Assembly (NCBI GenBank): GCA_051362555.1
Contig: CM120644.1
Location: forward strand, 24,636,534 to 24,700,533
Source of the DNA: Lingula anatina
Lineage: Eukaryota; Animalia; Brachiopoda
DNA: 64,000 bases
Direction of reading: 5' to 3'
The position numbers were made by a program, and so were the translations under genes. Position 1 is the first letter of the stretch; every line of letters begins with the position of its first letter. The notes below the pieces were generated by a model, which ran no database searches, was not told the origin of the DNA, and was given only the letters and a program-made list of their open reading frames with translations. This document shows positions 16,001-46,355 of this stretch, piece after piece.

Positions 16001-19000
16001 GGACCGTTGGAATACTCAGAATGCGCTTGAATTCGCCTGGAATGATGAGTGCATTTTCGACTGTGTAGCTCTCAAAAGCAGTTCGAATGTAGTTGGAAAA
16101 TTAGGAATATTTATAATGCCGTAGAAGGCAGTAAGAATATTTAGAACATACTTTGAACGGCGCACTAGTGTAGTTCGATTGCTGGCAAAATTATTATTTC
16201 AGCTCATCCGAGGCACATTCGAAACATTCTGGCGGAGTATAAAATCATTTAATGCCCGTCACACTAGAGGCGGAATGATTAAGAATGGCGTCGGAAATAC
16301 AATCCTTTGTGCGTTCCAGGATGTTCGAATAGCATTCTAAAAACATTCTAAAAATTCTGAGTGCATTCCAAATATTTTAACACATTCTTGTGGCCGGCTC
16401 GAATGTTTTTGTCATGTCAAAAACTTTCGAAGTGCATTCCAAGAGGAAATTTATCGAATGACATTTGAACAGTATTCTAACTGCACTATGACTGCATTCT
16501 AAATATTCTCACGGCCTTCCGACAGCATTCGAAACATTATGATCAGTTACCATTCCTGTGGCGTTATCTATACACTCTGGGCATCGTGTTACATTCTAAA
16601 CATGTTAGAAAGTAATTTTAATTAAGTATTTTAGGTATTTCAGCTGCATAATGTTTGAATTCTTTATATTTCAAACCATCATTGGCAGCCATACCGGGAG
16701 CAGTTAACTGCATTTGAGTTCGCTTCGTATATCATTCGAGGCATCTTCTTACATACTTCTGCCTGTATTCGGCCAGCAGTCAAACCACAATCATACGGGA
16801 TTTGAATTTCATTCGGAATATTCTGACTGCAATTTGAAATTCCCTCCCGATTATGGCACGAATTTTTCAATTTATTCATTCTGGCTGGTTCTACCTATAT
16901 TACTGCTGGTTCCGAATAAGTGCGACGGGGACCTTAAGTCGCGCACCAGTTCAGAATGGGTTAAAGTATTTGAAATGCACTCAGAATTTTTAGAATGCTC
17001 TTTGAATATCCAGGAATGCACAAAGGATTGTCTTTCCGATGGCATTCATGTTCATTCTGTCTCTAGTGTGACGGGGGTATAAGCGGGTCGGTTCTGTTTG
17101 ACCCTCCGACTACGGCAGTTAGCCCACTGCTGTGAAAGCGGCCTAATAGAAACAGCATGTCACAAGATTTGAAAACTAATTAAACTGTTCAAATAAATTA
17201 CCAATTATAACTATATTCTAAATGAGAAAACAAACAAAATCACAAATGATGAGTAGCCGCGTTTTACGCAATCATAGCAATCTCTTCATACCTATTTTCC
17301 GAGAATTTTACAATATCACTGGGTCTGCCCAGATTCCTCCTGAGTCGAAACCATCGCTCTACGCGCCGCCTGGTCCAATCTGTTTGTTTTACTATGGCCT
17401 GAAATAATGGGAAAAACATTTAAACTTGAGTAAATATAACAGTATAAAAGTCAACAAGTACAGTTATGAAACTGTATTTCTAATGATTATGAGCCAAATA
17501 TTTATTTTAACGGCTGCATCAAGATCAGTATAAATTAAAATAACATAATATAATAACATACTTTTTATAAATCCTGTGTAGCCAGTTTTACCAAGTGGAA
17601 ACTAGATGTGATATTCTTGCGCTAACAAATCCTTTAGAATTGTCAAAAATTTCCATTTAAAAGAAAAGTTTGCATTTTAAAATCCGCTCACCTGTAATTG
17701 TTTATCACTCGGGTTTTTATTTCTTTTAAATTCACTTTCTAATATGGGATTTTTCGGGACTTGAACAATTACTTTTCCCTTCACTCCCAAATGTACAGCA
17801 ATAGGAGAAGCTATGTACCTAGGTAAAGACATAATAAAAACTAATAATGTGCCATGAATATGGAATCTGGTGAAAGTGGCCATTATTAACAAGATACTGC
17901 TCTGGAGACACTGGGAATATTAAAATAATTCATTCTCAGCCTATGTGCTCAGAATCTTAATGCTCTTTCCATGATGCATTGCTTACTCAAACAGTTCCTG
18001 GTGACCTCCCCGACTCCACAAGCGCGCCTTTAAACGGATTAAACCTCTGCTCCAAGGTTTAATTGCTAGGTCCTACAGCGACGGCGCGAGTGGAGGCGGG
18101 GAGGCCATCAGGAGGCATAGACATCACTTTTGAACTGTGGTCGGCCATATCCATTCTGAATGGGATCAAACTGACAGCCGAGTATCAGCGGCGAGGGCCA
18201 GTGTGTTCCCCACATTATATAATCTGTACTGAATTACGTGAATGTAAATAGGCAGGTGTCTCAGTGTTCCTAGGTAATGACACAGAGCCACAAGGTAAAT
18301 ACAGATGACCTGTCTGTTATCAAACAGCAGAGCAGAATGAATTGAACATCTTACAGCAGCATCTATTATTTACTATGACATAATTAATACCCTTCCATTC
18401 AGAAATGCACAAAAGCTAATACAACACTACATATGACTGTTATAAGACATTAACACTCAAACAATGGGTATCACTTCTATCTTGTTAACACTATTTCAGC
18501 AGTGTGCATCGACTGCGGTAGGGCAACCAATTTTTTAAATTTTTAATTAATTAATTCTTATTTATTTATTTATTTTATTTATTTATTGTCATTTTTTTTT
18601 TTTTTTTTTTGCTTATCCAAATTACTTCTTTTCGTCGCTTTTTTCTCTATATGGTTTAAATAGGGATAGAATAAGTCTAATCAACCCTATCCTGTTTATC
18701 TAAATTAAGTCAGTTTAAGCATTTAGCTAAACTGCTGAGTGTTACCACTACCCCAGATTGGTCTCAGTTCACATGTCCTACATAAAGAGAATTTGGATTG
18801 AGGACTTAAGGTCAATCAAAAGAAAAATCAATCAAGCCACCTTCACCCCATTAATTTGCCACTGATCCCCAATATGCTATACAGTACCTTTTATTGTCAA
18901 AAGAATAGAACCATTCATTCATTGATTCAGATTACAATTATTGATTCAATCATCGTCACAACGGGCTAAGAATGACTGTTTTGCGGTAAGTATAGTTACT

Positions 19001-19922
19001 GGCGCTACTAGTAAAGTGTTAGCAGAAGTACATATCAGACATGCTTTCTTTCATTTCCCTTCAATTAACAGTATTAAAACTGATAAGAAAGATAGCAACA
19101 GCACGTTGTTAAACTTCGTATACCACAGTGTACAGACCGCACAAAATTTTTGATACGTGTAATTATTTTAAATTGAGTCGCGGGCATGGGCACGCGGCTC
19201 GTAGTCGTAGTGTAATTGTCCCTATCTCTTTAATTGGTCTCTGTCAACTTAAAGTTTACCTTACTTTATTGGCCTTTATCTAAAGTTACGATAATTTGCG
19301 GCCACGCGGTCAGACACGCCAATATCTGAGGTATAAAGCCAGGTAGCAGCTAAGAAATAAATAGAGTTTTAGATTTTATAACGAAGCTGTGGTTTTGCGT
19401 TACTTTTCTCTCCGGGCATAACTCAAGTCGTGGACTGAACCTTGAAATATCCAGCATTGGGATTAGAGCCCATATATTAAATTATACCCCGCGGTATCTT
19501 TAAGAACCCAGTACAAGGGTGCCAAGATATGTAATAAAAACGGGAAATTCAAAAAATATCTTATTTAATTCAAGACAATGAGTGAATAACCCATGCAATA
19601 CGACCTCTTACATTTTAACATTAAAAGCATATGCAACATTTTAATAGACTGGTGTTTAATGTCCATCTTGACCATCCAGTCTTAATCCTGCTGATAAGTG
19701 GGCGTTCACCAAACACCTGGTCAACACAAATACTGACCTCTCGAAGAGTGGCCTTAGCACCAAAAGCACTGCCGCTATTGGAATAGAATACCAGATAAGA
19801 TCTTGCACTTGTGGATGATATATTCCATTATCTGTATTTTCTAAATGTTTCCACGTAAAGCCTTCTGGAAGCCAAAATTTTTCGTTCCAAAACAATGCAC
19901 ATAACGTCCGCCAAGCTTCCAT
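10018..19922 (-). CDS. Ceramide synthase (CerS5/6-like, homeodomain + TLC/Lag1 domain), duplicate copy A, 10 exons, 377 aa
   Basis: Exons (minus strand): 19738-19922, 17692-17818, 17292-17398, 13275-13332, 13013-13063, 12664-12756, 12243-12371, 11852-11958, 10732-10888, 10018-10137. All GT-AG; total 1134 nt, open. Motifs [19 protein letters not shown] (Hox helix 3), [31 protein letters not shown]. Confidence 0.93.
12442..12511 (-). mobile_element. 3'-end fragment of the Helentron/HINE-like family seen at 53831-56033
   Basis: aactagaggaccagagagcggattgcgggtccggatattgtaccactagctggagtaagtgcattcgtatg is the near reverse complement of ~55962-56031; absent from the matching intron of copy B. Confidence 0.75.
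13612..15488 (-). mobile_element. Decayed PIF/Harbinger DNA transposon with transposase remnants
   Basis: TIR ggctgggttgtatgaaagccgtatagcactatac / gtatagtgctatacggctttcatacaacccagcc; CTG duplicated at 13609-11 and 15489-91; minus-strand peptides [37 protein letters not shown] (~15060-15203, frameshifted) and [14 protein letters not shown] (~14430-14472) match HARBI1-type DDE motifs; empty site in copy B near 40320. Confidence 0.88.
15772..17125. mobile_element. MITE family 2 copy, split by a nested insertion
   Basis: actaactag..gagggtcaaatatggc..gaagtatt[insert]gcgggtcgg..tttgaccctc; an uninterrupted homologue is at ~37230-37405. Confidence 0.7.
15879..17079. mobile_element. Non-autonomous Harbinger-like element (1.2 kb) with TAA target duplication
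   Basis: TIR tacccccgtcacact / agtgtgacgggggta; TAA at 15876-78 and 17080-82; internal TIR-like copies at ~16254 and ~16910-16931; interior rich in gaatg/cattc. Confidence 0.82.
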
Positions 19923-20495: not shown

Positions 20496-20716
20496 TTAGA
20501 CCCCATTCCCACAGATTTTAGATCGATCTATCCCTGTAGGGAGTCTCACTAGATTACTGTCAGCTTAGCCGGCTTAAGCGTCTGTCCCGCCTACTAAAAG
20601 CTGTAAGGGGGTAATTAACTGTCGTGCACGCACGGCTGACTGCAATTTAGCGTGAACCCCCAGGGAATTATGTCGATCCGGATGGATCGATCTTAATCTC
20701 TGGGAATGCACTCTTA
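20496..20716 (-). mobile_element. MITE family 1 copy (reverse)
   Basis: Reverse complement of 776-987; TTA on both flanks (20496-98, 20714-16). Confidence 0.85.
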
Positions 20717-25618: not shown

Positions 25619-28329
25619 TTACTTCTTCTCATTCATGTTGTGGTTGATATGATCATCAATGATATCACCAGCGCCACCTAGAACATCAGGTTCTTCAGAA
25701 CTCTGCTCCTCGCTCTCACTGCGTTCATCTTTCTCTACCTACCACCACAGAAATGTATACAGATCAAAATATCAAAAAGTCTCTATTACAGTGAAGCAAG
25801 TCAACTAAAATGAGCAATACTTAATAAGCAAATCTAATTTAACTGCCCAGGAATTTTAATTAACAAAATAACAACATGATAAAACAAACTATACATAAAA
25901 TGAAATGAAAATTACTTTTAAAAAATAATGCATGAAGTTAAAAAAACAACACTGGAAGCTTAAATTTCACTTAAAAAAACAGTTGAAAATTATTTCAGCT
26001 TTTCATTTTTCATTTTTAATTAAGATTGAAGTTGCAGCAATGGGAATCAAAAATCTTAATTGTCAACAATTTATAGATTGGGCCCTATTATTGTTTCTGT
26101 TGTGAGGAACTGTCATTTGTATGTGTTTGTGTGTTGCGTGTGACTGCCTATAGAAAAGACTGGAAGGAAGGGGGGTAAAGGGTTGGCAAAATGGGGGGGG
26201 GGGGGGGGGGGGGGGGAGGGGTTAGGTTGACAGGGGAGGAAGGGGGTAGAAGGCAAACATAAGGCTTATTATACATGCATACACATACCAAGGTGGTCGT
26301 TTTGCAAGCCCCACCCTTCACCTGCATGCACATGCACAAAACATGACCTATAAGTATATATCCATTAATGGCACATGCACTTTTTGTACAGGGGTATGGA
26401 GTTTAATTCTGCTGTGTATAGGGTGTTAGTACAGCACCGATGCATGGGGTCGTTATGTTGCTGAAAGCCGTAGCTACAACAAGTCTCTGGAATACTGAAC
26501 AATTTGAAAGATAACTGCTTTCAAGATACCATGTTTTGGTGGGGTGGGGGGGTGTACATTCATTTACAATGTTTATTTTGAAACCATAGAATTGCCTCTA
26601 CTTAATAGTTAAATGCTTTATGGTTTTCAAAATGTTTTCATCTTTGATTTAAAAAAAAAAAATATGGGAATAAATGGACTAATCCCTGTTATTATCTCCT
26701 CCACGGATTGCCCCTCTATGCAACTTGTAAAAAGGTGGTTGGTATGAAAATAGGCGACTGCACTTTATTCAATTTCTTCAGTTATATTGCCAAGAACAAG
26801 AAAAGAATAAAAGTTCCATATAAAATAAGCTGTTGTTATTTAGGTTAAGTCCAGTATATTCTGCATGTTACTTGAATGTTTGAAAGTTATCTATACTTCG
26901 CAATACAGATGAAAAGTGGAGTGCTGGGCATTGCTTCACTTCAGTGCCTGTCACAGGGCAGTGTTCAGCTTTATGTAAGTTTTAGCTTTGTTTTATGTGA
27001 TGGCTCCCTGAAATCCTCCTGAAAATTTAACATTTTCAGTATACTGTTCTCCTGTGGAAATTCCATAAAAAATCAACCAAGCATGATAATAAATCTGAAT
27101 GCTACAGCATCAAACTGGCCATGAAGTTGTGAAGACAATTCTTCTAAATGGTAACTAACAATAAACATAATAAAACAACATAAAAAGCCCCCGTAATATT
27201 TGGCAACTTAAAGTAAAGTCAATTAATGCTAAAGAACCAAATGCAGAGCTAAAAAAAACTTATTTCACCACACAGCTAACAGAAGTGCAGGTTAATACTC
27301 TATTACCTAGTGCAAGTTAAATAAACAATAAGAAAACACATGCTCTCAGACACACACTGTTAACTATCAGCAGAAACCATCACTGGTGGGAGGAATTGAA
27401 ACACCACACCCAATTATTATCATTATATACATATACATATATATATATTCCAGAGCACCCTGCAGTAAAGCACACACACAACAACAATTCACTGCACTAG
27501 ACAATAATTGGTAAACAGTTAAATCAATCAACACAAGGAAATATTGAAGTCTGACTGAGTATACGTCATATGATATTAGGGATTTGATCTGAACTGCAAA
27601 GTCAATTAACTGGCACATAAAACATTGACATAATTTTCTATATCCCCTTCAGGGCTTGGCGTTAAAGGTGGCTTGCCGGCCTGGGCCACTTAAAACCAAT
27701 ATCAGGCCAGTCAATCACAGGGGTTACTGGTCCCAGGGGCAGGTAAAGTTTAATGTGCCAAATAACCCTTGTAATATCTACCAGACCTCCCTGGGCTGTG
27801 GAGATAAAATTAGTGTCAAGCCCTGGTCCTACTGAGATAAAGCAAAATCCCATTATTGGTCTCAAGTTGTAGGTGCCACACATCGTAACCATGGACTGAA
27901 TGGTTAACATGTAATGGTTAATATCTCATATACTCCAATTATGGGAGGAAGCTAAAAGCTACTCAAACATAATATATTTAAAACATCAACATTCAGCAGG
28001 TTTATGAGTGTCAGACATTTAGGAAAGATTGGCACAAGGCTATCATAGGCTAAACACTGCAGAAAGGTTTCTTATGGTTTGATTAGTTAGTAAAAATAGT
28101 CACCAAAAGGAACTGGAAAGCCATTCACTGTGAAAGACGTGATGTTTACAAATCACAACCTCACAATACCAGCCATCCACATATATTAGGAAGAAGGAAC
28201 TGTACAACCTGGTGGGACCTATTTCACCAGACGTTTCACTGCTTAGCTAATGCTGCAGAACTTCCACAGCCAATAATATTGAATATAACGAAGGGGACTC
28301 TGTGACAGATGGCTGAGTGGTGGACAAAC

Positions 28330-28374
<45 letters not shown>

Positions 28375-31300
28375 CACCAGGGTATTAAAACTGAATTGTG
28401 TGCTTTCAACTGATACAGGTAAGACTTAATAACAGAACAGATCCATTCCCTTACAAACAATTCCTACGGGGTTTCCTTTTGGACTCTAAGGGACTCTTTA
28501 GGATTTCTATTGGATTCCAGAGGCGGATCCAGAGATATTTTCTGACAGTCTTCCAAATTATCTTTGTTGATCCATCCTCGATCCGCCCCTGGATTCCTAT
28601 CCAGGACATGTCCTACAGGATTACTATCTAGGAAATATGTCCTACAGGACTACTATCTGGGATATATGTCCTACAGGATTCCTATCTAGGACACATCTTC
28701 TATAGGACCCCCTTGGGATTTCGGACCAATTTTCCCACAAGTCTCCCTGCAGTAAACTTCTGTAAGCGGGGTTGTGAAGCAAACATTTCCCAGGTGGTCG
28801 AGTCCCAGGCCCAGCGTGAAGCACGGCGTAAGCACATGTTATTTGACTCTGCAGTTCACATGCAAATGTTACATATTTGGCTGTAACCTAGCAACTGTGG
28901 CAGGTGTGACAGTGTGGTTTCTATGGTAACACAGGCCGAATGTTTTTATATGGCAACACCACACTTGAAAATTGTGACTTGGGACATCTGCCAATGATAA
29001 GTATGGATTATAAGCTGTAGATGGGGAAAAATGCTCAGAAATAAGTTTAATTATCAACTGTGCTTTCTTGTTTTTAGTGTGATAGACCCAAGCTAGAAGA
29101 AATTCCGCTCTCTTGAATTCAATGTTTTTAAGTGATTTGCATGTTGTTGTACTGCTAGCTTTTTTGAATGAAATAAGTAAATAAAAACAAATAAAAGAAA
29201 CAGATAAAAAAAAAAGGTAATAGCCAACAAGCATTGTGACTGTTTCAGTGAAGTAACACACAACTACATTTAAAAAACATAACACTTTATAGTGATGTTG
29301 ACGCACCTTTCCCAAGGCAAGCGAGTTGTAGATGACTCTACTGATCAGATAAGACCAGTAGAAGTGGAGGAGCTGGAGCGCCACCAGTGCAGCAATAAAC
29401 AACTGAATGGAGGGGTACCAACCCATTATTACTGCACTCTCAAACACACATGAACGGATTATCCTAGAAGATAGAACAATGGCAAAGGTATTGGAGGATT
29501 TTTTCATTAACATTTTCTCTTCCTTTCATATCTGTAAAAATAATTAACGGAAAGGAATTCAGCTTCTGAATCAGTGCTTCTCTTTGAAATATCCTAGAAT
29601 ACAACACAGTGGCAAAGCTAAATGACATCTTGGTTATTTTCTTTTTTTCTTTCAGACTGTTTTGTTGGCCTTTCTGTTTAAAGGGGTACCGTCTTGTCAT
29701 CAAGGCTCAAAGAGTAACCCTAGAATATAGAATGTTAGCAAAACTTATTGCAGCTTTCAAATTCTGTGACTGTGTTTCCATTTTACTCATCAAAAGATTC
29801 TGTTGAGGAATGGGCAAAACCCCTTCTTCCCTGATAGCCAACAAATTATCTGGCACATTTTTCATTCCATGTTGCCAGAAATATTTGTTGTTTTCCTTTT
29901 GAATTTTCTAATTGTTGTTTCATCACCTTAATATGTCTGCAATAAATTAAGCACCTTTACATTGGTTATTCACTGGTCTCCACAATGCAAAGCAATGACT
30001 GAGGGCAAGTAGTCTATGTAGGCAAACAAAGAATGCGCCATGGAGCCTTAACCTACCAGCTAGAGAAGCAGATGAATTGGCAGTAGCTCATGCACTGGTG
30101 TTTTCTGGCATTGTTCCTCTAACAAAAGCTTAAAATAGGATAGAATTTTCTGAGAAACCTCTGCTTTTATTCCTTGAACCATATAACCAATTACCATGTA
30201 TGTATCTCCTTCCAAAACGAAACATTTACCCATACATATCTGATCAACAGCTCAACACTGACACATCTTGTACTTCTCAATAACAGTTCACAGCTGCTTT
30301 ATTGGTACAGAAAAATTTGACGATCAAAAGAAATTGTTTACAAAGTGCTGAAACAGTGTGATCTTCTTGCCTCATGCTTAGCAACATCAGTGCTACTTGC
30401 TGTTGTTGGATGTTCCATATTGCTTGTGCAACACATTCTACAGTCACATCTACCACAATATGGCTGTAATCTATACATTGTGCTGGAGCTCACCCAAACA
30501 CACTCCACTGTCACACCTAACACAGCCGTGGTGTCCACAGGACTCTGATGAGGTAGGTGAGAGGGTGACCAGGTAAATGACATCATTAAATAGGGACATT
30601 TCATTTATCATACAGATTGCAAAGCATGCTCTAGTGTTGGCAATGCACTGTCACACACAAAACATTCATATGCCACAAGTACACGTTCTGAGGAGATGAC
30701 ACTGATCTCATCATGAAATTCAAAACAAAAATAAACACATAAAACACATACAATAACAAGACCAAAACAACATAACACTAATAAATGAAATAACACTGTG
30801 CCATGCTGAACAGTACAGTGTAACAGATGGATATATCACAGACATTGCACAGACACAAAACAGACATTGTACAGACATCACACAGACATTGAGAACACAA
30901 AACAGACATTGTACAGACATCACACAGACATTGAGAACACAAAACAGACATTGTACAGACATCACACAGACATTGAGAACACAAAACAGACATTGTACAG
31001 ACATCACACAGACATTGAGAACACAAAACAGACATTGTACAGACATCACACAGACATTGAGAACACAAAACAGACATTGTACAGACATCACACAGACATT
31101 GAGAACACAAAACAGACATTGTACAGACATCACACAGACATTGCAAACACAGAAGTGACATTGTACAGACATCACACAGACATTGTGAACACAGAATAGA
31201 AATTGTACAGACATCACACAGACATTGCAAACAAAGAACAGACATTGTACAGACATCACACAGACATTGCACAGGACACTTATACACAGACTGCATACAT

Positions 31301-31641
31301 GTCTAGCCTTCCAAACAGTATTCATCAATGAATACACAGCTTGTACCAAACAGGTGGCCAATTAACAAAACACGTTCTGGGACATTTTCTGGAACATCAT
31401 ATGATATGATCTTAAAATTTTAATCCTGAAAAGCAGTTCTCATTCAATAATTTTACTTCTGTCCTCTTTTATGGGTATTTTTTTTAATCACATGTGATCT
31501 AAAATCCAGTGGTCTTAGGGCATAACTTAAAGCTAACCAAAACAATCCGGAAGCACCCTTTCTTGTAAAAATGATAACATGCATATATCAAACATTCACC
31601 TATAACCTCTTTATCCTAAAGGCAAACATGCCACCCCCCCC

Positions 31642-31695
<54 letters not shown>

Positions 31696-33020
31696 ATGGA
31701 ACTACAGGGTAAACGCCTGCATGTTCAACATCATTTGAATTAAATGATAAATAACCTCAGTTTGGAATGCATACTTGGCACCTAATACAAGATGGGAGAA
31801 CCTTGCATACATAGCATCTTTTACATAAGAGAGGGGGACACCTTGCTCACATGGTATACAATATGGAGAGGGCCAATTAACACAATACACCTTGCAGCCA
31901 GATGCAGTATTGCAACTGTAGAAGCAGCAAAAAAAGATGTCAGACTAGCTCCAAGCTGATGTTTTGTAGTGTCCTTTTACAGCCACCTGTCCAACCTGTG
32001 TATATGATGAGCTTACATGCTCAATGTAGTGTCAGTTTTAATGACTGGCCATTTATATAGGTTTCTATTTTTAAATTATTAAAATAATGGGATAAACTGT
32101 ATGCCTTCATGCAGTTTCTGAATATCTTATTTCTTAAAATTATTTTTTACTCCACTGCTTTGCTAAGGCCAAAATAAGAAATCCAGATTTTGATATAAGT
32201 TGTACAGGAGAGAAGAAGATAATATAGTTCTTTATTACTTTTTGTTTTTCATTATTGAGTCTCCAAAACTACACTGAATTTGTATGCAGTGATATGTTAA
32301 AAGACTGGGTCATCATATATCTGGTTATTTATATGTAAAATAACAGAATAAATGACATAAACAGTTTCAGAAGTTAGTTGTCATCGACACAAAAAACAAG
32401 ACAAAAACGCTCACAAAAAGAACTTCACTTCAACATCACAATTCAGTATCACAGACAGTATTCAGCCATGCATACAAAGAGGCATGCAACCACCATATAG
32501 AACACACTCAGACCAGCTTAGCGTCAGTTCACATGTACAGAAGTGCTGCTACAACCATTAGTGTGGCTCTAACTGCAGGCATGAGACCAGCTTTGGGTGA
32601 GATCTACCTGGCAAATGTCTCACATCACAGTACAACATTACAACGGTCCTCTTCTGAACTCTACCAAAGGTCTGGAGGATCTCACGCCTGCTCTAGAAAC
32701 TGAACACCACCCTTGTTAACCCTGAGAACAAACCGTCCACCGCAAAGCCCGTTTCACATTTGATCATGCGTTACACCACCGTGTGCTAACATGCCCCAGC
32801 CCTAGCCCACGTAGCATGCAGTCATTAAGCAGTACAAACTGGGCACAGGGAATGTGGAGGTGGTGCCGACATGCTGAAACATAGGGCCACTGGATAAGTA
32901 CATTGGATTGACATGGAAGACAGGTTTTCTATGTGATAGTGCTGACTAGTGAAGTAAGGAAGAGAATTGATTATGTAGCAGTGTGTGTCACAGTGAGAGA
33001 GAGAGAGAAGAGAGGATAAG

Positions 33021-33063
<43 letters not shown>

Positions 33064-36000
33064 AGAACATCATTGTTATCTTGCCTGTCTGGTATATTTA
33101 TATGTTATAACACTCCTTTTCATGTTAGCTGCAGTTAGAAGTTTTAGATATTAAATAACACTACTAGTATTCAAAACTGGTTAATTTCTCTCCTTTAAGG
33201 AAAGATGATTTACCTGCTAGAATTTTTTCAATGAGAATCTATGAAAGTCTTAAAAAGTACCCCTTTTTGAAGTTTGAAGTAGAGCCAGAATTTCTAGTGA
33301 AGAATCCAAGAATAAAATAATAAGATATAAGTTAATAAACTATGTTAAATCTAGGACTTGGCAAGAAAGCGAGTTAGACCAGTTGTAGTTACAAGATATT
33401 ACATAACGTGCAGCGGAGAATACAGTGACTCAGTACTTATGGTACTTATCACAAGTTAAATGTTATGTTAGTGGGTAGTTTAAGAATGTTCTGAATGCTA
33501 TTTGAGTATTATTTTCACCCTGACTATCTGATCACGGGAGTAACAGGACACTTGAAGAGCATTCACAACCCGCTGATGTGGGGACTAACTAGTCTGCTGA
33601 TCAAATATGGCTGACTCACTTCAAAGCTGGCCCAATAATCACCTAACAGACACTGAACAGATTCCCAGGGAGGATTACATGGCAAGCGTTCAGTGGAATT
33701 TTCAAGTGGGTCAGCCATATTTGATCCAGGTTGGGTATGCTCTCTTGTTGAATGAATGAACATGTTCTACCAATCATTTCAAATCGAGTTTCTATTATAA
33801 GGGAAAAATAACTTCTATGTGCATTTTTCTGCTTGTCATATTTCACTCACCATAGTTTAACTTTTAAAGGTAAAAGGCAAGGTTTCCTCTTTATCAAAGC
33901 AAACTCTGCATTTAAAAATATCCAAAAAATATCATGAAGTTTCAATTACTTTTAAGGCATTGCTTTAAGGCACCCATACAGATATTCTTTGAATTACAAC
34001 TCCCAAAATAACAAATTTTTAAACTCTTTTTTTTTTTTTTTATACATCAAATAATCTATTCCCCACAGTAGTTTCTATCAAACTTCCCCAGTGTCAGTGT
34101 GCAGGAAACCTGACATGGTGGTCAAATGGGGCTGTGTCTACTGGCCCACACCCTGATTCTACTTGGAGACACGGCAGGATTCTACTGCAACTAGCCCTAT
34201 AAACTATACCCAGGAAACTAGCTCTATGATATGCTATGATCAAAACCCAGGAAATTAGCTCTATGATATGATCTATAGCTGTATGCGTGGAAACTAGCTC
34301 TATGCGTGGAAACTAGATCTACATGTGGAGACTAGCTCTATATGTGGAGAATAGCTCTACAGCCTGTGGAGTGTATGCAGGTGCAATCAGACAAGAACAG
34401 TTGCCCAGAACGGTTTAGGTCCAAAATACCAGACAAACAGTTGGGTTGGCCACCAATTACAAGACTGTAGAGATAACTGAGGACATAATTCTTCCTTTTT
34501 TATTATTAGTCTGTGCTCTCAAAGATACACTAAACCTTAAATATGACAATATTAAAAAAAACTGCATTTAAGGTTTTCATCATGGCATATTTCAAAAACA
34601 TATTATCATGTAAATGTTGGACGACCACAGGTTAAGTTTTTAGACAATTAATGCAGATGCCAAAGTATGAACTAAATTCTGCAAATCATGATAATTTATT
34701 GTGGACATTGTTTGCATATCTTATGTCAGTTTCGAGCACAAGGTGGCTGCAGAAGTTACTTCTGGTTGTCTGGTGACATAATTCAGACTTGAACCAGTTT
34801 AGGTCTATCCTTGTCTGAAGATCTAAACGTGCATTAAATTCTACAGAAGTGAGAAAGAGGAATAAAAAGAAGAAGAAGAAGAAGAAGAGAAAGAGATTGG
34901 AAAAGAGATGGAGAACAGGTACAGAGAATAATAAGGAGAAAAGAGCTGTGAGGGTGTTATGTGGTTGCCATGGTGCAGAGAGCAGCAGTGAGGTCTGCAG
35001 TGTGCACTGATGTGCTGATAGTGTATATATATAGTGTGCACAATCAATGAGGCTGCTGCCACTGGTGATAACTATGATGGCAGTTGTCTTTAACTCGAAA
35101 TCATTCTGGAGAATTTCTAAGACCATTTATCAATGAAAATAGGTAGAGATGCGCTTCCCATAGTTGATGAAATCATAAACATCAGGTTTTGCTTCACTTC
35201 TCAATTGCTGTAGTTGAGATAGGTTCATATGATCCACAATCATGATGGGAGCACATTGTGATTGCTGTAGTTGAGATAATATCACAATCATCACGTAGGG
35301 GGGAGGGGAGACAGTGCTATACGCCTACCTTGCCCTTAAGAAAAGCTGTGAAGGCAACTTTGCATATCAAATAAAACCAAAATATGTGGAGCACCAGTAG
35401 GGATGTCAGCAGTATGTTATACACCCAGTAAAAGGGGTAAGTGAAGGGGTCCACCTTCACTGTGGTGTGCCCCTCTAACAGTGTGCTGCGGATCACCCTG
35501 GAAGAAGACAAGAGATTGGAGACGACGTCAGATTCACTTCATACAACAGTAGCAGGTCTTTGCACTGAAAACTGAAATGTCTCTAATCATGGTCCTTTGA
35601 TTTAAGTGATTTCAAGATGATGAAAAAAAAAAAACTTTTACAAATGGGGCTCATGCAACTGATGTGAAATGGGAAACATAAAACGGGGTCCAAGGGACCT
35701 CCCAGGACCTGAGGTTTACGCATTTTTGGCTCCAAATAGTCAGAAATCAGCAGAAAGTTGGAAAAATCTCATCCGCGTAGTATCTGACTCTGCGTGGCAC
35801 TAACCCAGGTTACCACCACCTTCATTACTTGTGCCAATGATTTCTACCTAGGCACAAATGTCAGATACTGAACACTATGATCTACAAAACCCTTTCCTTC
35901 ATTCAGCAACCAAGTCATTCTGTTTGTTTCCAATCATAAATATAAACTCTTAGATGAAGACAGAGGCTGGAAGACTAAATCTATGTTATATCATCAAATA

Positions 36001-39000
36001 TAATCTGGCAGAATTTATCACATTTTTACAAATATTAAATTGGTTATGATAATCAATAATAAATTGGGTACATGATAATCAATAATAAATTGGGTACATA
36101 ATAATAAATTATAAATTGGTTACATTATAGCTATTGACATCAACATCATACTATTCAGTTAAAATATCAAAGTGCATCAAAATTAATTTTTCTATAAATC
36201 TGTGCACTACCTTAATTTTTCAGCCCTACTGAAAATTACTGAAAATTTCAATCAAAAACCTTGTGCATTTGTCTAAATGTTTGATAAAACACAATTAAGC
36301 AACAACTGTTAAGTGATAAAACATAATTATGTATAAGTGCATCTTTGAAAGAAATTTCATCATTTTCTGCTTGGATTTATTTCTATATTGGCAATCCATC
36401 TTATGTGATCAATATTGAATAAACATAATGCAACATTAATAATCATTATCAATTTAGCTAAAAAAGGATTTCTACCTGAATCAGGTGATCAGTTGCCTGT
36501 CATTAATATTTGATAATATTGCTTAGAGCCTTGAAGGTAAGCATATTTCAAAATCATGACTGGCACCATTTCAACAAAAAAGATCAATTCTTAAAATTAT
36601 AATCTACTTATCCAATGCAAAATAAAAACAAATCCAAGTGACATATTAAAAGGTTTCAGTCTGAAAGAAAGTGCATCATTTTGTCAGTGCAATTGTGCCA
36701 GTAAACCAGTAATAAAGGTCCGCACTTACCTTGTAGGAAATATGATCAGTCTAGTGATGAGCCAGACCAGAGCAAACCCACCAAACAAGAAATCACACAG
36801 CTTCTGCCGACCTGCATATTTTGCCATCTTTGCTGCCTAAAACACAGAGAATAAAACATTATTTGATGGTTTTCTTCTCACATTAAACATATTACCCAGT
36901 TTATGAAACACTAAACATGGTCCTTGTCACAAAAATTAAATAAATAAATAAATAAATAAAAATAAATAAAATAAAATAAATTAAAAAATAAACTTCTACT
37001 TCATAAATTATATTATCTAATGCAATGTGTAATATGGCAGAAATATATGACGAGAGGTGCCATCTAGTGAGACTTCAGCCACCAAAAGTTACCAGGAAAC
37101 AGCCACATCTGTTTTTTTGTTAAAACTCAGAACCCTGTTATGTATCTTTTATGTATAAAAGGATTAAACATATTGTTTACAATATAATATTATACTAAAA
37201 TCGATTCGACGGATATTTGGTTAAAAGTTGATCCCATTCAAAACAGAAGACTTACTAGTCCGAGGGTCAAATATGGCGACCCACTACAAAGCTTGCCCTC
37301 TTATCCACTAATAGACACCAAATAGATATCCCGTGGGGAAGTATTCAAGTGGGTCGGCCATATTTGACCCCCAGACTAGTTAGTTCCCTATTCTGAATGG
37401 GACCACTGAGACATGGTTCTTGTCAGTCAGAAAGTCCTCCAACATCTAACAAACTCTGTACTATCTAACACATGCCTTTCATGTGTGTGTGTGTGTGTGT
37501 GTGGTGGTGGTGGTGGTGGTGGTGGTGGTTGTGGTTGTGGTTGTGGTGGTGGTGGTGGTGGTTGTGGTGTGTGTGGGGGGGGGGGTTTACCTCTAGCCAG
37601 AAGTCAGCAGCATCATGGACAGCTAACACCAGGGTCCCTATCCTCACATAGTTATTGGACCAAGACATTGACATCAGAAAAATGGTCACAATGTGGTGGA
37701 GGAACATCTCCCAGAAATCCTGAAATTATAATAAAAATTAATTAATTAACTAATTTATCCAAGGCAGATTTGTTGAAATAACATTTCTTCTCAGTTACTG
37801 TGGTATTAAGAAAAGTTAATGGATCCAACTCCTCTTTTGGAGATGCAGACATACATGAAAATATGTACAGAAACTAAAATAATAATAATAATAATAATAT
37901 TAATAATAATAATAATAAAACACATCACCATACTGTACCTTTCTCTTGATGTCAGCAAACTGTGAGGCAGAGAGAGACCAGTAGAAGGCTAACTCTAACA
38001 TGTAGTACCAGAATACATCATCTGTTACATGCTACAAGAGAAAGAAATCAATATCTCAGACAAATTTACCCTTTTTTCTAGCAGTGATGACATTTTAAAA
38101 TTTCATCACACATATTTGAGCAGATGTAGCTCTGTTTTTATTTTAATTCTCTCAAATAACCTGTTATTGTAACTCCAACTGCCAACCTGAGTAATATACT
38201 GGTACATGTATTCTATAATAGCAAAAGCTTATTAAAAAAAAAAAATTAATTGTTAATTTTGATAAAAATGCCCCAGTTTAAGTTCGCCTAGTGGATTACC
38301 TGGTCTGGGTAGCCCATCCAGCAATTCCGCGTCTCCCAAAACCATGGTTTCTGCAGTTACAGAGAAATTTATTAACTTCTACATATAACAATATTTTCAC
38401 AGTAAACCGTATACATTTACTTAAATCCACTTCTCTTACTGTTTAATCAGAAGTTTGATAATTATGATTGAAATCATCACTACTGATACTTATGTAAAAT
38501 GATTCAACTTAAATGTGCATTCTTGCAAATAATAATGATACAACATATAATATCAACAAATAATATTAACAAATATATAAACAAAGTTGGGAAATATACT
38601 AATATTACTAAGTGAAAAAACTTACTTTAACAAATTGAAAATTATCTGCAATTTCTAATTTTTATAAAAACAGAATTAAAACAACATGTGATTGACAAAA
38701 ACACTGTTGTGGCTAAATCATTAGTATAACACCCAATGCAAGGACTTAAGAGGGCAAGGGGGCACTGAGGTCACACTCACAACCAAAGTTGATCCACAGA
38801 CTAGCTAACACATCTGCAGATCAAATATTGGTGATCCACTTAAAAGCTTCACACATAATCTCCTAATAGACACCAAATAGATTTACTGCAGGGAATTATG
38901 TGGCAATCTTTCAAGTGGGGAGGCCATATCTGATCCGTGGATCTGCTGGTCCGTAGATTAACTTTAATTGTGAATGCAGTCAGAGAGACTGAAAGGATGC

Positions 39001-42000
39001 GGCTGTATTAGTTCACTAAATGAAGGTAATAGATATGCAACATGCTACACCTTACCCTGGGAAAATAAATGATGCCCTGGGGTATGAGTACTGCCCCAGA
39101 GGTCTGAGTGAGGCCCCCATTTATAAAAACTGACTACTGAAACATGACTTTGATTTAATTTTTTAAAACACTATTTTCTTTTAATAAGACGCCTGTTCTG
39201 CTATTGTGAACGCATTTCAATCAGTCCACATTTTCACTATCAAAGTGTATCAGGACAGCGTTTTCTACTGTAGAGAAAATTGTACTTCTATTTTTGAACC
39301 ACACTATCTTTTAAATGATTTTGTTTTAGAATGAAAATATAGTTTGTCAATTTTGTTCAGATAAAGTGAAAATAACCATACTCCCATGTTTATGGAAATC
39401 TACCCCTGATTGATTGAATAGGGAGATAAAGGGATTAAAGGATTAACTTGGGGGGGGGGGGGGGGTCAAGGGATTTTCTGCCTTAAGATAAACCATACAT
39501 GCACCCTGGGACTATAAATGGAATTTGAGGGTCATCAACTGTGGTTTTATTCAGGAGGCAGACAGACTGGTGCTAAATCAGACCTGATATATATGACCAC
39601 TAAGGTAATGACTCCATCTTTTCTATGGGGAAAAGATGATAAAATTGAATCTTTCAGATTTTTAATTTCTGAATCATTAAAATATATTCTTTATAGCAAC
39701 TATTTTTAGTGTATAGAACAGGGCCATGCTTTACAATTTTGTTGTTATCACACAACAAATATTTCAATCTTCAGAATGTATGATTAAAAAATTTACAATA
39801 TTTAAAATTGTCACCTGTCCCAATTGAAAACATCAAGTCATTGCCATAACTTCTCACCAGAATCAAATATTAAAAGTCTCTTTTAAATCTGGTTGAGAAA
39901 TAACACAAGTCTGTCTGCCTTCCATTCTAAAACAGCCATGTCTGAACAGTGTTAACAATGATTGGGTCTATTGTTCCAACTTACATCCCATAATATGGTG
40001 ATACCGTACACAAAGGCTGATAGGTAGAAACAAAACCTCCAGCTACAAAAGAACAAACAGGAAACTCTACACACTGCATGAGCTGAAAGACAACTTCATT
40101 AGCGTGCCACCAGTACATTGTGTTGCCATGGCAACATAGCAATAGGACACAACCAAATTTCCGGGGTTTGTTAATCACGGTCTCAGAGGTACATGATGTA
40201 TGAAGGGACTGTAAAAGCAAGAATAACCACAGAGCTTGTTTGTACAATAATCAAGTTTTAGCTGCCATCCTCAGAGACAATATATATATACCCACAAATC
40301 AATGGTATAGTTTATACTTCATATTGAGTGAAATGCCACTGGAGATGGTGTGTTTTGTGAAACATTCTGCACAAAATTATAAAATTCTGTACTTGACTGT
40401 GTTATGTATAAAAAGTGTATATATATATATATATGGAATATAATTACACATTTACACTGCCATCTGAAAAAGCTGGATTTTTCAAATTCGAATTATTCAA
40501 ATCGCTGCTAACAGGATTTTGAGAATCCGGTTAACAAAAATCCTCATGTGTTCAGACTACTGCAGTTATTTGAATTGGGAGCTAATTAGCCATTAATTCG
40601 GATAAAAGGCTGTAGTTTGAACGGATTATAAGTGTTTGTTTGGAGGTAGGTGTAATTTGGACTGTTCATATCTGACATATTTGAGTGCTTCCAGACATCA
40701 TCTGGTAGCACAATGTTAACATTATGATTTATTAAACTGAAAACGAGAGAGATAATCAGAGGTTCAGATGTGAAATATAGTTTGAAAAGAAGAAGAAAAT
40801 GTTAGTGTTTCTGTCCTAATATGTCTGTCCTTTTGGTCCTACAGATTGTAAAATATTCAAGTCTTCAATATGGGCGGGCGAGGGGGGGGGTATGGGAGGG
40901 TAGAGAGAGAGAGATTTCTCAAACCCGTCCCAAGGATAGACCTTCATTTTGGAATACAGGTCTGATAAAACACTTTTTGATTGATAACAAATATGTAATA
41001 GTTTGAAAAGAGTGTTACATCTGTAGATCTATGAATGTCATGTCACTGTCCTCAACATGTCTGCCATTTCTATCCTCCAGCTGTTATATACAACTTTCTT
41101 CAGCATTAAATTTATCGTCAAAAATTTTCAAAGGGCGAATAAGGCAAGGAGGGAAAAAGTTCTGTCAAACCTGTCCTAAGGGAAGATTTCTGTTTAGGAA
41201 TTCAGAGCTGATAAAACATAATTTTGATTGCTAACATCATCAGTGTATAAATATTGAATAGAGTAACTTTTGCCTTCACTGTCCAGATGATCATGTTAAC
41301 TAGATGATATCAAATAAATCCCACAGCCCAACCAAGACACACCACTCAACTCCGGCGACAGCAAGTGGGATAACAAAGAATTCAATGCACTCCCCAGAAA
41401 GAGACAACCATAGCAACCTTATCTGTTGTAATGTGAGGACTAGTGAGATGAAGAATATTGTTTTGTGTGAAAAGTGTAAGAATCACAGCAAAATAAAGAG
41501 TGGAAATACACAGATGTGTGCACAGCACAAATATTAAATCAATGCAATAAAACCAATTATTTATTATGTGGTACTCAACAGGTGTTTTGACAAAATCTCT
41601 AAATGTATAATAGAAACAGCATGCTACAAGATTTAAAAACTAATTTAAACTCTTCAAATAAATTACCAATTATTACTATATTCTAAATGAGAAAACAAAC
41701 CAAATCACAAGTAATGAGTAGCCGAGTTTTAGGGAATAAGAACAATCTCTAAATACCTATTTTCTGAGAATTTTACAATATCACTAGGTCTGCCCAGATT
41801 CCTCCTGAGCCGAAACCATCGCTCTACGCGCCGCCTGGTCCAATCTGTTTGTTTTACTATGGCCTGATAAAAAATAGAGAAAAATTCAAACTTGAGTACT
41901 AGAATATATAACAGTTATAACGTACAGTTATGGCTAGAGCCAAATATTTATAATTTTACAGTTGCATCAAGATCAGTTTAAATACCATATTATATGTTAT

Positions 42001-45000
42001 AAATCCTGAGTACTGGTAGCCAGTTTTACTCAGTGGAAACTAGGTGTGATGTTCTCTTGCACTAACAAGTGATGATTTTTAACAACCACTGACCTTTAGA
42101 CTTGTCAAAATATCCATTTTTAAAGAAAAAAAAAATGTATAAAAAAATCCACTCACCTGTAATTGTTTATCACTTGGATTTTTATTTCTTTTAAATTCAT
42201 TTTCTAATATGGGGTTGTGCGGGACTTGGACAATAACTTTTTCTTTCACTCCCAAATGTACAGCAATAGGGGCAGCTATATACCTAAGTAACAACAAATA
42301 ATTAAAACTAATAATGTGCAATGAAAATGAAATTTGGTGAAAGTGGGGCAGCATTTTTAAGATATTCTGAAGATACTATACAGATAGTAAGACCGAGTTC
42401 CCATACTTCAGATCCATCTGGATAGACCTAACTCCCTGGGGGTTCATGCTAAATTGCTATCATTTCAAGAGGGAGCCGAGTGTGCATGAAAGTTTAAACT
42501 AAATTACCCCCTAACAGCTTTTAGTAGGCAGTACAGACATTTAAGCTGGTTAAGCTGACAGCAATTTAGTGAGACTCCCCAGGTAGATATATCGATCCAA
42601 ATATCTGTGGAAATCTTATGTAATTTCTTTTTTTTTCTTTATTTACTGGCTTTTCTTTTTTTTAGTTTTGCTGAATACTCTCAAGGACAAAATCAATAGT
42701 TTTTCCCATCCAAATGTTCAAGGCCTCTTGAGCATTGCTGGGAGACTATCAAATTCACTGAGGAAGCAAGTACTGGATCACCATTTTCTCTCAAGGAAGC
42801 TAATCATTAAGCTATTTCAGCATTAAGAAATCTGATTCTCTCCATTAAATACACACACACATCATGATTAAGCTTGCTGAAACTGGTTATAATGACAGGG
42901 GAATATTTCTGTCTTGTAAGATAACAATCAGTGAAGGAGACAATGCAAGTATAAATCCTTAGCAATGTGTTAAAACTTGAATCAACACCACATTCAACAG
43001 TTAACAAGAGCAGAAAATTATCTACACCACAAACTGACAGGTGAGGATCAAAGGTGAGGGGCCAGTGTGTTCCCCACATTATAAGGTGTGATAACTGAAT
43101 TCCCAAGGTACATTGTGTACATTATAAATAGGCAGGTGTCTCAGTGTTCCTAGGGAATGACACAGAGCTACAAGGTAAATACAGATGACCTGTATGATAT
43201 CAAACAGTAGAGTAATAGAATAAATGGAACCTCTTCCAGCAGCATCTATTATTTACTATGACATAATTGATGCCCCTATTCAGAAATACATGAAAGCATT
43301 GTTACATATCAGTCATACAGGAAGACCTAAACAAAAGATATTACTGCTTTGTTGTATATATTAATCATGGTCACATGTACTGGCTATGAAGGGTTGTTTC
43401 TTTTGCACTGTAATAAAATGAAATGTTCTAAAACCAGATCGACCTGGACTTATGGGTAATGGGGACAAGCTGACCCACATAATTACCATCACACTGAGAA
43501 CAACCTACTCTACAAGTCACCTACTAGTACTAGGATCTTTTTTTTTTCTTTTCTTTTCTTTTTTTTTGTACAATTTCTCATTATACAGTAGAGAAATGTG
43601 CACATAATTAGCCAGTGAAATATCTGTGAATATTGACAGGCTTAAAGGACAACCCTAAACAGTGGGCAGGTTCTTGTTGTCATTTGATAGTCTATAAACA
43701 TCTGAAACACTCAGGGTGACTGCCACTGTTAGTCTCAATAACTTCACTAAAATATAGTCAAACATTTAACTGATTTTTCTTTAAATACACTTTATCCTTC
43801 CATTACTACAAAAACACTGACTATGCTTTGTTTTCAAATTCTTTTCAGTACACTTTCAAACAAGGCGTGATAAAGCATTTATTTGAAACCAAAGTTCATT
43901 ACTAGTGCATGCTCACAAGAAAGCAATTGTGTGGACTTTATGCTCTTTTAAGGTTCAAATAGTACCATTCTCAGCAGGGCACTGGGGTTGTCATGTAGCA
44001 AATCCTTACTGCACAAACTTCATATGCCTATATTACACATGCTATAATATACTGCAGTGACAGAGCAGTTTTCATTATTCAGCACTTGCCCCTTTCAGAT
44101 AAATGTCATGAAAGAAAAAAAATTAAAGTGCCCTTCTTATGACAAAAAACATAACACCACACATTGAGTTTGCTCTTTGCCCTGTAAAAACACTTCCCCA
44201 CACCTTTTAATATCGTACGTAATACATCTTGTTTCTGCTGTTAGATCTGTATACCCTAGACAAACATGCTTATTCAAAGGGTGATTTTGTACTTTGCTCA
44301 CAACCTAAAGAGTAAATATATCTTTATGCCTGTTTGGGAATTTGAGTGCTACACCCTTAGTTCTCAGTATTGTGCATTCAGAGCTTGTCCTTTCAATTAC
44401 ATAAAATTATGTAGTCTAGGATACTAGTGATTGTATGAATGATTAAGAAGTTACTTGCAGTTGGCCTAGATTAAGAAATGAGAATACTGGTTGAAAATAA
44501 ATTGTACAAGAGAAGCACAGTACATTACCCGACAACGCGCAGACGGCTGTACATCCCCCCCCCCCCCTTTTTTTTTTTTTGACTCCTTACTCTTAATTCA
44601 ATGTGAGATGGCCATTTATAGTATTTTAATTATCGGAACATAGTTGTTGTTGATGCTGTGTAATGTTTCCTGCTTTCTCAAGCACAAGAACAGAAATTAC
44701 ATTACATCTGCAGTTGTTATAATAATTCTATTTATGTTAACTTGCAACATCACAAAATGTTGCATCTTGAAGATTGTAAAATTCTATCAGTTCTAATCCA
44801 TGCCTAACTCATAGTTACAATTTAAGTTTTTTCAACACAACAGATATAACGAGAGCAGGTGTGTTTGCTTCCATGCTATATAACAGTTTTAAATGAAAGG
44901 AAAAAACACACAATGAATCCAAGCTAAACTGCAGTCTTCAATTAAAGGAAGGAAATGTATTTTCAGGATGTCCAAATGAATAATCTTCTGCATGAATCAT

Positions 45001-46355
45001 TCATAAACCTGACATATGCATGTACATAAGTATCTCTCTTATAAGGTCATATTAAGTAAATCTATGTAACACATGGTTTGCTAAGTGCCCCCTCCTTTCC
45101 TGGATGTCAGATACCATTAGATTTTAGATCGATCTATCCCCGTGGAGAGTCTCACTAGATTACTGGCAGATAATCCGGCTTGAATGACCGTCCAGCCTAC
45201 TACAAGCTGTAAGGGGGTAATTAACTTTCGTGCCCGCTCGGCTGACAGCTATTTAACATGAACCCCCAGGGAGTTGGGTCGATCTAGTTGGATCGATCTA
45301 AACCTCTGGGAATGGGGTCTAAGGCCTTAGGATCTTGATAAAGAAAACAAAGCAACAAAACATTTGAAACATTCAGGCCAAATCTAAATTGTAGTAAAAA
45401 AAACAACCCCTCTAAATTAGTTTTAAAAAATCCTCATCAGCAGGAGACAAAAAATTAATGTCCTCGGTTGATTCTCTCCCATCATCAGACCAAAAATTCA
45501 GAATGCTCCTTTGATTTTCTCGCATCACGTGTGGCATTTTGCACCTAGGTAACACGTGGCTTCATGACAGAAATTTACAAACAGCTGCTACAGGACTAGG
45601 AATAGGTGCATTTTCAGAGAGAAAGAAAAATTACATGCTGAATCTGAGGTTGCAGTCCATCTTCACAGTCAACTGGTATAAGTATAAATACTACATATAC
45701 TTGTACTAAGTCATTAATCTTTCACGCTATAATCTGTATCTACTGGCCTTGTAATGTGTATAAGCTGATTAAGCTAAGTAGTTACTGGTTAGTAGAAGTG
45801 CATGCATGCATGCTTTCTTTCTTTCTTTCCATTTCTAAAATCAACAGTATTACAAAAGAAGCCAACATGTTGTTGAACTTCATATACCACGTTATGTAAT
45901 AAAAACGGGAAATTAAAGAAATATCTCATCTAAACAAAATTCCCGCAGATTAATTTAGTTCAAAATAACGAATGAATAACCCAAAATATGATCTATTTTA
46001 TCTCAGCATTAAAATCATGTGCAACATTTAAATAAAAGGGCGTGTTATGTCTATCTGGACCGTCCAGTCTTAACCCTAACCCAAGGTAATTAAATGCTCG
46101 GGCCGGTAAGTGGGCGTGACGAAACGATCACCCCACTTTCGCCACACGGCGGGTCAACACAAATACTGACCTTTCAAAGAGTAGTCTTAGCACCAAAAGC
46201 ACCACTGCTAAAGGGATAGGATACCAAATGAGATCTTGCACTTGTGGATGATATATTCCATTATCTGTATTTTCTAAATGTTTCCATGTAAAGCCTTCTG
46301 GAAGCCAAAATCTTTCGTTCCAAAACAATGAACACAACGTCCGCCATGCTTCCAT
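25619..46355 (-). CDS. Ceramide synthase (CerS5/6-like, homeodomain + TLC/Lag1 domain), copy B; 381 aa with exon 9a or 377 aa with exon 9b
   Basis: Exons (minus strand): 46171-46355, 42157-42283, 41757-41863, 39985-40042, 38300-38350, 37939-38031, 37591-37719, 36730-36836, [35329-35497 or 29307-29463], 25619-25738. All GT-AG; canonical Lag1 motif [23 protein letters not shown]. Confidence 0.94.
27650..27825. mobile_element. Short hAT-like MITE (family 3)
   Basis: Termini cagggcttg..caagccctg; related reverse copy at 57904-58083; no clear target duplication. Confidence 0.55.
28448..28770. repeat. Probable MITE containing a ~29-bp tandem repeat
   Basis: cctacaggattactatctaggaaatatgt-like unit, 3-4 copies at ~28600-28695; loose termini cccttaca..tgtaagcggg. 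Confidence 0.5.
29307..29463 (-). CDS. CerS-B alternative exon 9b
   Basis: tcttctag| 157 nt |gtgcgt, phase 2 in and 0 out; [52 protein letters not shown]; corresponds to the only exon 9 of copy A. Confidence 0.88.
30836..31272. repeat. 42-bp minisatellite, ~10 copies
   Basis: cacacagacattgagaacacaaaacagacattgtacagacat repeated; source of the repetitive ORFs at 30720-31361. Confidence 0.95.
33580..33730 (-). mobile_element. MITE family 2, degenerate copy
   Basis: actaactagt..tcaaatatggc..tcaagtgggtcagccatatttga. Confidence 0.55.
34210..34365. repeat. Degenerate ~20-bp tandem repeat (ggaaactagctctatgcgt)
   Basis: About 7 imperfect copies of aaactagctcta(t/c). Confidence 0.65.
35329..35497 (-). 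CDS. CerS-B alternative exon 9a
   Basis: cttcttccag| 169 nt |gtaggc, phase 2 in and 0 out; [56 protein letters not shown] (LH.FW..LI..GK pattern of the last TLC helix). Confidence 0.88.
37230..37405. mobile_element. MITE family 2 copy
   Basis: TIR cccattcaaaacag..ctattctgaatggg; inner inverted repeat gggtcaaatatggc / gccatatttgaccc. Confidence 0.75.
37482..37585. repeat. Compound (GT)n/(GGT)n microsatellite
   Basis: Read directly; adjacent to the CerS-B exon 7 donor. Confidence 0.9.
38795..38945. mobile_element. MITE family 2, degenerate copy
   Basis: tcaaatattgg..taatagacaccaaatagattt..tcaagtggggaggccatatctga. Confidence 0.5.
42394..42615 (+). mobile_element. MITE family 1, degenerate copy
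   Basis: gacctaactccctgggggttca..aattacccc..agtgagactcccc.. Confidence 0.75.
45113..45322 (-). mobile_element. MITE family 1 copy (reverse)
   Basis: Reverse complement of the family; ends gggaatggggtctaa. Confidence 0.82.

Follow-up and report, generated by a model that had tools for sequence, protein, structure and literature searches.

Can one gene supply ceramide synthases of different acyl-chain preference by splicing in one or the other of two versions of a single exon? This question is raised by a stretch of 64,000 nucleotides (nt) of the brachiopod Lingula anatina (assembly GCA_051362555.1, contig CM120644.1, positions 24,636,534 to 24,700,533), hereafter the window, whose minus strand carries two ceramide synthase genes in tandem, CerS-B (46355 to 25619) and CerS-A (19922-10018). 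Signalling and the properties of membranes depend on the acyl chain length of ceramides, and one mammalian synthase, CerS6, is a drug target. We found that both versions of exon 9 of CerS-B, 9a and 9b, are spliced into real transcripts. Judging from the position of this exon and from work on the mammalian enzymes, the two isoforms probably differ in the fatty acyl-CoA that they accept.

CerS-B has ten coding exons, of which exon 9 is present as two candidates. The gene model is as follows, with transmembrane helices abbreviated as TM.

46171..46355, minus strand: coding exon 1, with the ATG at 46355; the spliced protein is identical to RefSeq X1/X2.
42157..42283, minus strand: exon 2 of the spliced gene model.
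41757..41863, minus strand: exon 3; the Hox-like domain (PF00046, residues 87-126) spans exons 2-3.
39985..40042, minus strand: exon 4 of the spliced gene model.
38300..38350, minus strand: exon 5 of the spliced gene model.
37939..38031, minus strand: exon 6 of the spliced gene model.
37591..37719, minus strand: exon 7, with the catalytic residues H215/H216, D243 and D246; 9 reads of RNA run X7 have loose ends joining exon 7 to exon 8.
36730..36836, minus strand: exon 8, constitutive; by splice sites and reads its donor goes to 9a or 9b.
35329..35497, minus strand: alternative exon 9a, 169 nt, residues 287-342, encoding the last part of TM6, then the 15 residues E294-F308 that cover the specificity loop, then TM7.
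29307..29463, minus strand: alternative exon 9b, 157 nt, residues 287-338, with the end of TM6, the 11-residue segment E294-S304, and TM7; present in RefSeq X2/X3.
26973..27018, minus strand: alternative last exon of RefSeq isoform X3, used after 9b, with an AG acceptor at 27018 and an approximate end; from annotation only.
25619..25738, minus strand: exon 10, coding part to the stop, with DERSESE, a variant of the DxRSDxE motif.

The coordinates and lengths of 9a and 9b, their AG/GT sites and their phases (2 on entry, 0 on exit) agree with an earlier note on this DNA, and a polypyrimidine tract precedes both exons. Inclusion of a single exon gives the 381 residues (9a) or 377 residues (9b) that the note had predicted; these products are letter-for-letter L. 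anatina XP_013382240.1 (X1) and XP_013382241.1 (X2). The claimed homology and deep divergence of the two exons were also borne out. They were matched by tblastn inside the window (E 3e-4 to 4e-4) and share 33% of their amino acids and 50% of their nucleotides, with a synonymous divergence (dS) of about 1.5, despite which the frames and splice sites of both are intact. As adjacent homologues with equal phases and canonical splice sites, 9a and 9b are tandem-duplicate exons. No third homologue was found between exons 8 and 10 by tblastn within the window. The X3 last exon (acceptor 27018) drops the acidic tail with the DxRSDxE-like motif, and oyster, scallop and abalone records include similar tail-less forms.

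Four of nine listed RNA runs carrying the L. anatina species label were aligned to 35200-36900, with 6-25% of each run sampled. The reads placed numbered 4 in run X1, 12 in X4, 31 in X7 and 6 in X2 (these RNA run names are distinct from the RefSeq isoforms); junctions were listed from 3 reads upward, and statements on loose ends hold among the ends listed. The predicted junction of exon 8 with 9a (36730->35497) was read 3 times in run X4 and 5 times in X7. That of exon 8 with 9b (36730->29463) was seen as loose ends at the exon 8 donor, in 6 reads of X4 and 9 of X7, which fit 9b of CerS-B at 30/30 and 29/30 letters versus 23-24/30 for the CerS-A copy. The junction of 9a with exon 10 (35329->25738) was found in 4 reads of X7 at 27/30 letters. 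Runs X4 and X7 come from different studies, and 9a took about one third of the exon 8 junction reads in each (3/9 and 5/14, respectively). Read variants in 9a comprised four synonymous changes and three conservative replacements, none altering E294-F308 (Fisher p 0.056 against site counts). At position 36809, 13/13 covering X7 reads differ from the window by a change that would turn R into W in exon 8. The X7 reads are 95-99% alike overall; another population or species label is possible.

We examined what the exchanged exon encodes. Both isoforms match the whole profile of the TLC domain (PF03798; E 8e-50 for 9a and 8e-48 for 9b), and the Hox-like domain ahead of it scores above the curated cut-off. 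The residues H215, H216, D243 and D246 lie in shared exons, and the TM7 tryptophan (W326 in 9a, W322 in 9b) is present in both isoforms; by alignment, these residues correspond to H220, H221, D248, D251 and W327 of CerS5. Exon 10 reads DERSESE, with E in place of the second D of DxRSDxE, the C-terminal motif of ceramide synthases (PubMed Central, PMC8789539). In an alignment with human CerS6 (8qz6), exon 9 begins in the late part of TM6 and extends just past TM7. The claim of the earlier note that the swapped block contains the published specificity loop is supported, as what is exchanged includes exactly the segment aligned with E290-S300 of CerS6 and E299-S309 of CerS5. Segment E294-S304 of 9b is indeed CerS5/6-like, sharing 7 of 11 positions with E290-S300 of CerS6 with no gap, and the 9a segment is, as stated, four residues longer.

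The 11-residue sequence E299-S309 of CerS5 alters acyl-CoA specificity (PMC10122649), and the work on the 11-residue loop of CerS5 and CerS2 (Tidhar 2018) is cited in PMC10122649, PMC8789539 and PMC11919693. In the CerS6 structure, TM4, TM5 and TM7 form the walls of the acyl tunnel, and the TM6-TM7 loop closes it, limiting how many carbons fit and setting chain length; W318, by which the sphingoid base is oriented, and K328 both lie in TM7, which also forms one side of the proposed product exit (PMC11919693). AlphaFold models of the two isoforms, made from 72-row alignments (mean pLDDT, predicted local distance difference test, 89.7 for 9a and 89.5 for 9b), have the same helices, with a loop between the last two of seven residues in 9a versus three in 9b. 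The best solved matches of the 9a model in Foldseek were the CerS6 structures 8qz7 and 8qz6 (E 1e-23, TM-score 0.73-0.86).

The exon pair extends beyond Lingula, whether conserved or recurrent. Protein searches and lookups of 21 clusters gave isoform records of nine other species that differ in the same block and are identical on both flanks; the differing block begins just past the TM6 proline and ends immediately ahead of the acidic tail. Two versions were present in the oysters Saccostrea cucullata, S. echinata, Ostrea edulis, Crassostrea virginica and Magallana gigas, in the scallops Pecten maximus and Argopecten irradians, and in the ecdysozoan Priapulus caudatus. Four versions, X1-X4, were recorded for the nemertean Lineus longissimus (P0262, P0195, P0263 and P0184). 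With Lingula, ten species of four phyla share the same block boundaries. Three of the four Lineus versions are highly derived, and two are without the histidine preceding the TM7 tryptophan. A search of 1.84 billion representatives returned no record with tandem exon copies, except for a doubled whole gene and one mis-built model.

For the pairs compared, versions within a species share 21-37% identity. Inside oysters or inside scallops, each bivalve type is 82-94% identical, and between these groups 60%, versus 79% for the shared TLC part between oyster and scallop. The bivalve versions are stable within each type and different between types: both are constrained and kept distinct. Within the TLC domain, the exon 9 region evolves fastest, with a Lingula-oyster identity of 40% versus 62%.

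We then considered the age of the pair, using an exon-only tree (59 rows, 52 columns) in which the bootstrap had not fully settled and 29 of 56 inner branches were open. Bivalve type 1, which takes in Mytilus and clams, formed a clade with support of 100/99, and type 2, comprising oysters and scallops, one with 98/95. A duplication limited to oysters and Pinctada was rejected by the approximately unbiased (AU) test (p 0.0027). The phylogenetic evidence indicates that the bivalve exon pair is older than the oyster-scallop split. Lingula 9a was placed, weakly, beside the rows of annelids, of Priapulus X1 and of Lineus X4 (96/78), and 9b, also weakly, beside deuterostomes (53/87). By the AU tests, independent duplication was not rejected for Lingula (p 0.295), for Priapulus (0.451), for Lineus (0.335) or for the bivalves taken together (0.0735). 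Both a single old origin and several origins at this one exon would be compatible with the tree and these tests. Since the same block is swapped in oysters, scallops, Lineus and Priapulus, the device would be ancient in protostomes or have arisen repeatedly at the same exon.

How might the two exons be kept apart? The earlier note had held that inclusion of both exons, or of neither, shifts the frame of exon 10. The frame is broken in either case; with both exons, however, the shift occurs already in 9b, where a stop falls at residue 349, and not in exon 10. Without either exon, a stop falls at residue 286. The stop in 9b lies 133 nt upstream of the last junction, and the double-inclusion transcript is therefore a candidate for nonsense-mediated decay. 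The early stop, followed by decay, would help to enforce exclusion. Thus, the reading frame, as computed, and the presumed decay of double-inclusion transcripts probably both contribute to exclusion. A pair of complementary intron stretches flanks 9a.

36657..36670, minus strand: 14-nt intron stretch, 60 nt past the exon 8 donor, a perfect complement of 29646-29659.
29646..29659, minus strand: partner of the 14-nt complement, about 190 nt ahead of the 9b acceptor.

Pairing of these stretches might loop out 9a. This is a lead only, because a complement of this length was reached in 15 of 200 shuffles over whole introns; in a window chosen afterwards it was reached in none of 200. No competing partner for the pairing was found ahead of 9a.

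In the mechanism that we propose, splicing in either old, diverged exon copy lets one gene make two full-length, expressed enzymes with a common catalytic core and a different lid and TM7. By alignment, the swapped exon supplies the segment that seals the far end of the acyl tunnel in CerS6, together with one of the three tunnel-lining helices, and an exchanged lid would alter the carbon number or the chain shape that fits. The broader proposal, that a splicing switch from the protostome ancestor, or one evolved four times, picks the ceramide acyl chain via the tunnel lid, of which the nemertean would have up to four, is a serious but tentative possibility. Several points weigh against a difference in the accepted acyl-CoA or against the evidence beneath it. 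The switch is deduced from the position of the exon. The junction counts are small; no junction was listed for run X1 or run X2, and none of the X1 reads fell on 9a. The junction of 9b with exon 10 rests on the RefSeq X2 model and is absent from the reads placed on 35200-36900. No loose end joining 9a to 9b was listed, at a depth of about 5 at the 9a donor in the best run; strict exclusion is not proven at that depth and a 3-read threshold. RefSeq holds frameshifted forms that skip both exons in oysters and Argopecten, and splicing at exon 9 is therefore somewhat leaky. The comparison among species draws on automated protein records, not genomic exons. Among the records listed, a single version was present in four Mytilus species, the heteroconch clams Dreissena, Mercenaria, Ruditapes and Mya, the unionids Potamilus and Sinanodonta, Ylistrum, Pinctada, Magallana angulata, four abalones (Haliotis) and the hemichordate Ptychodera, and in the insects returned by the searches; the vertebrates returned also showed one version. 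These one-version counts apply to the looked-up clusters, and further isoforms could sit in other clusters. Loop length is no code in itself: the spacing from the TM6 proline to the TM7 tryptophan is 38 residues in 181 of 212 distinct segments having both anchors, including record P0292, a CerS2-like, very-long-chain enzyme that shares this spacing with CerS5/6. A spacing of 42 occurs in only 4 of the 212, namely 9a, one Lineus version and two Glandiceps paralogues. A reading of chain length from loop length was thus rejected, because the 38-residue spacing is dominant and is also that of P0292; for the latter reason, loop length alone cannot give the product. The two paralogues of Glandiceps talaboti, P0064 and P0108, lie on one contig and have a loop four residues longer, as in 9a, and a third gene, P0156, has the usual loop length; here the loop was diversified by gene duplication.

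Exon 9 also exchanges all of TM7, including the base-orienting tryptophan and the proposed exit side, and the swap may change a property other than acyl-CoA choice: sphingoid base preference, use of unusual acyl chains (branched, hydroxylated or unsaturated), the rate of product release, or partner binding. The roles of TM7 in CerS6 (PMC11919693) favor this explanation, as does the position of K328, which by alignment is T in 9a and N in 9b. It is nevertheless unlikely, though by no means negligible, as both exons retain the W318 equivalent together with the histidine ahead of it, and the biggest structural difference between the models is the lid loop, for which a role in chain length has been published. 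We regard as improbable that 9a and 9b are biochemically near-equivalent and were retained for regulation by tissue or stage, or through subfunctionalisation, with the same product. Many bivalves, abalones and insects do appear to need one version only, CerS-A is without 9a, and the exon 9 region evolves fastest in the domain; however, the bivalve versions have been conserved by type since before the oyster-scallop split, redundancy poorly explains four Lineus versions, and the shares of 9a and 9b are similar in two RNA runs. The low read counts, with runs X1 and X2 almost without 9a (0/4 reads, and depth under 1), could suit a duplicate in decay, or an artefact of the annotation or the assembly, with a single isoform that matters. 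This is very improbable and largely refuted, as both exon 8 junctions occur in reads from two independent studies, such a divergence has left frames and splice sites intact, and the records of nine other species have the same swap. A difference in the accepted acyl-CoA is accordingly the explanation that we prefer.

CerS-B resembles mammalian CerS2-6 in its Hox-like and TLC architecture, its catalytic residues, and the placement of the specificity loop inside what is the swapped exon here; mammalian CerS genes also have ten coding exons (PMC6315813). In mammals, however, separate genes serve different chain lengths, whereas one Lingula gene has two versions, and Lineus records have four. The suggestion of the earlier note that this gene does what vertebrates do with six paralogues was overstated, as Lingula has two versions and a tandem gene copy. 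We found no description of an alternative exon for the specificity loop of a mammalian CerS. Among known splice variants, skipping of CERS2 exon 8 removes the catalytic Lag1p motif (PMC7876150), and C-terminal variants of CerS1, 5 and 6 change the tail (PMC8789539). These likewise alter ceramide levels or the C-terminus by alternative splicing, but none trades the loop and TM7 for a complete homologous alternative.

The closest analogue is coq-2, in which mutually exclusive exons 6a/6e switch substrate between ubiquinone and rhodoquinone synthesis in helminths, annelids and molluscs; the switch was proven by exon deletion in C. elegans, and single versus repeated origin was left open (PMC7434440). 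There, too, the core of a membrane-bound lipid enzyme is reshaped by a pair of homologous exons, of which only one is used at a time. The coq-2 exons belong to another enzyme family, are equal in length and make a proven switch, whereas those of CerS-B are unequal and the switch is deduced. CerS-B would be the second case of marine invertebrates switching the substrate of a lipid enzyme by exclusive exons.

The X1/X2 forms of Lingula, oyster, scallop and Priapulus and X1-X4 of Lineus are already in the automated RefSeq annotation, but as bare isoform names, with no tie to the specificity loop or to one another. We found no description of the exon pair in searches of PubMed Central and bioRxiv, at the level of listings and abstracts. 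Passages of a paper on oyster ceramide genes (PMC3517309), of that on the Lingula genome (PMC4595640) and of one on the evolution of CerS6 (PMC6315813) hold no account of it. Thus, within the literature searched, the isoforms are annotated in RefSeq yet without description. How a short loop sets CerS chain preference has been called largely unknown (bioRxiv 10.1101/2023.10.24.563787). The natural enzyme pairs and one set of four, alike except for the loop and TM7, offer a ready test set for loop function, and the four-version gene of Lineus is the best single assay system. If the proposed switch is real, membrane sphingolipids would be tuned by splicing, and the exon pairs would form a natural loop-swap library for the chain-length code. 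It would also be a possible answer to how varied ceramides arise from few invertebrate CerS genes.

The second gene of the tandem differs at this exon.

10018..19922, minus strand: CerS-A, tandem gene copy with ten exons, having only a 9b-type exon (10888-10732).

CerS-A has intact exons and an open frame and differs from CerS-B by a dS of 0.21 and a nonsynonymous divergence (dN) of 0.04 (dN/dS about 0.19). Its intron 8 follows CerS-B 36429-35800 and then resumes at B 29496, so that about 6.3 kilobases with 9a are absent; no 9a remnant was found when looked for in CerS-A. This break in the alignment suggests that CerS-A most likely lost 9a by deletion after the gene duplication. The copy carries D243N and E250D at near-invariant positions of the catalytic region. 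D occupies position 243 in 262 of 264 aligned proteins, the remaining two being CerS-A's own records, and its CerS5 equivalent, D248, is listed as critical (PMC10122649). CerS-A is possibly an inactive or regulatory copy. Its exons 3, 4, 8 and 10 are 97-100% identical to those of CerS-B and its other exons about 90%, an unevenness that may reflect gene conversion. The two diagnostic letters of CerS-A in exon 8 were not among the read variants listed for the RNA runs on 35200-36900.

The window has several further features. A weak DDE_Tnp_4 (Harbinger-type transposase) fragment lies at about 15000-17100 in intron 3 of CerS-A (E 3e-4, under the curated cut-off). Tandem genes resembling PAN/apple, Pro/Thr-rich and chitin-binding-type proteins were read from open frames at about 300-7700 on the plus strand. 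A tandem array of ten copies of a 42-base-pair (bp) unit occupies 30837-31269, between 9a and 9b, and an array of units of about 145 bp lies at 54665-55703, upstream of CerS-B. Six copies of a dispersed repeat, each about 200 bp long and 72-93% alike, lie at 778-987, 4413-4628, 20494-20708, 42411-42614, 45118-45331 and 57621-57841; the repeat is probably a small non-autonomous element.

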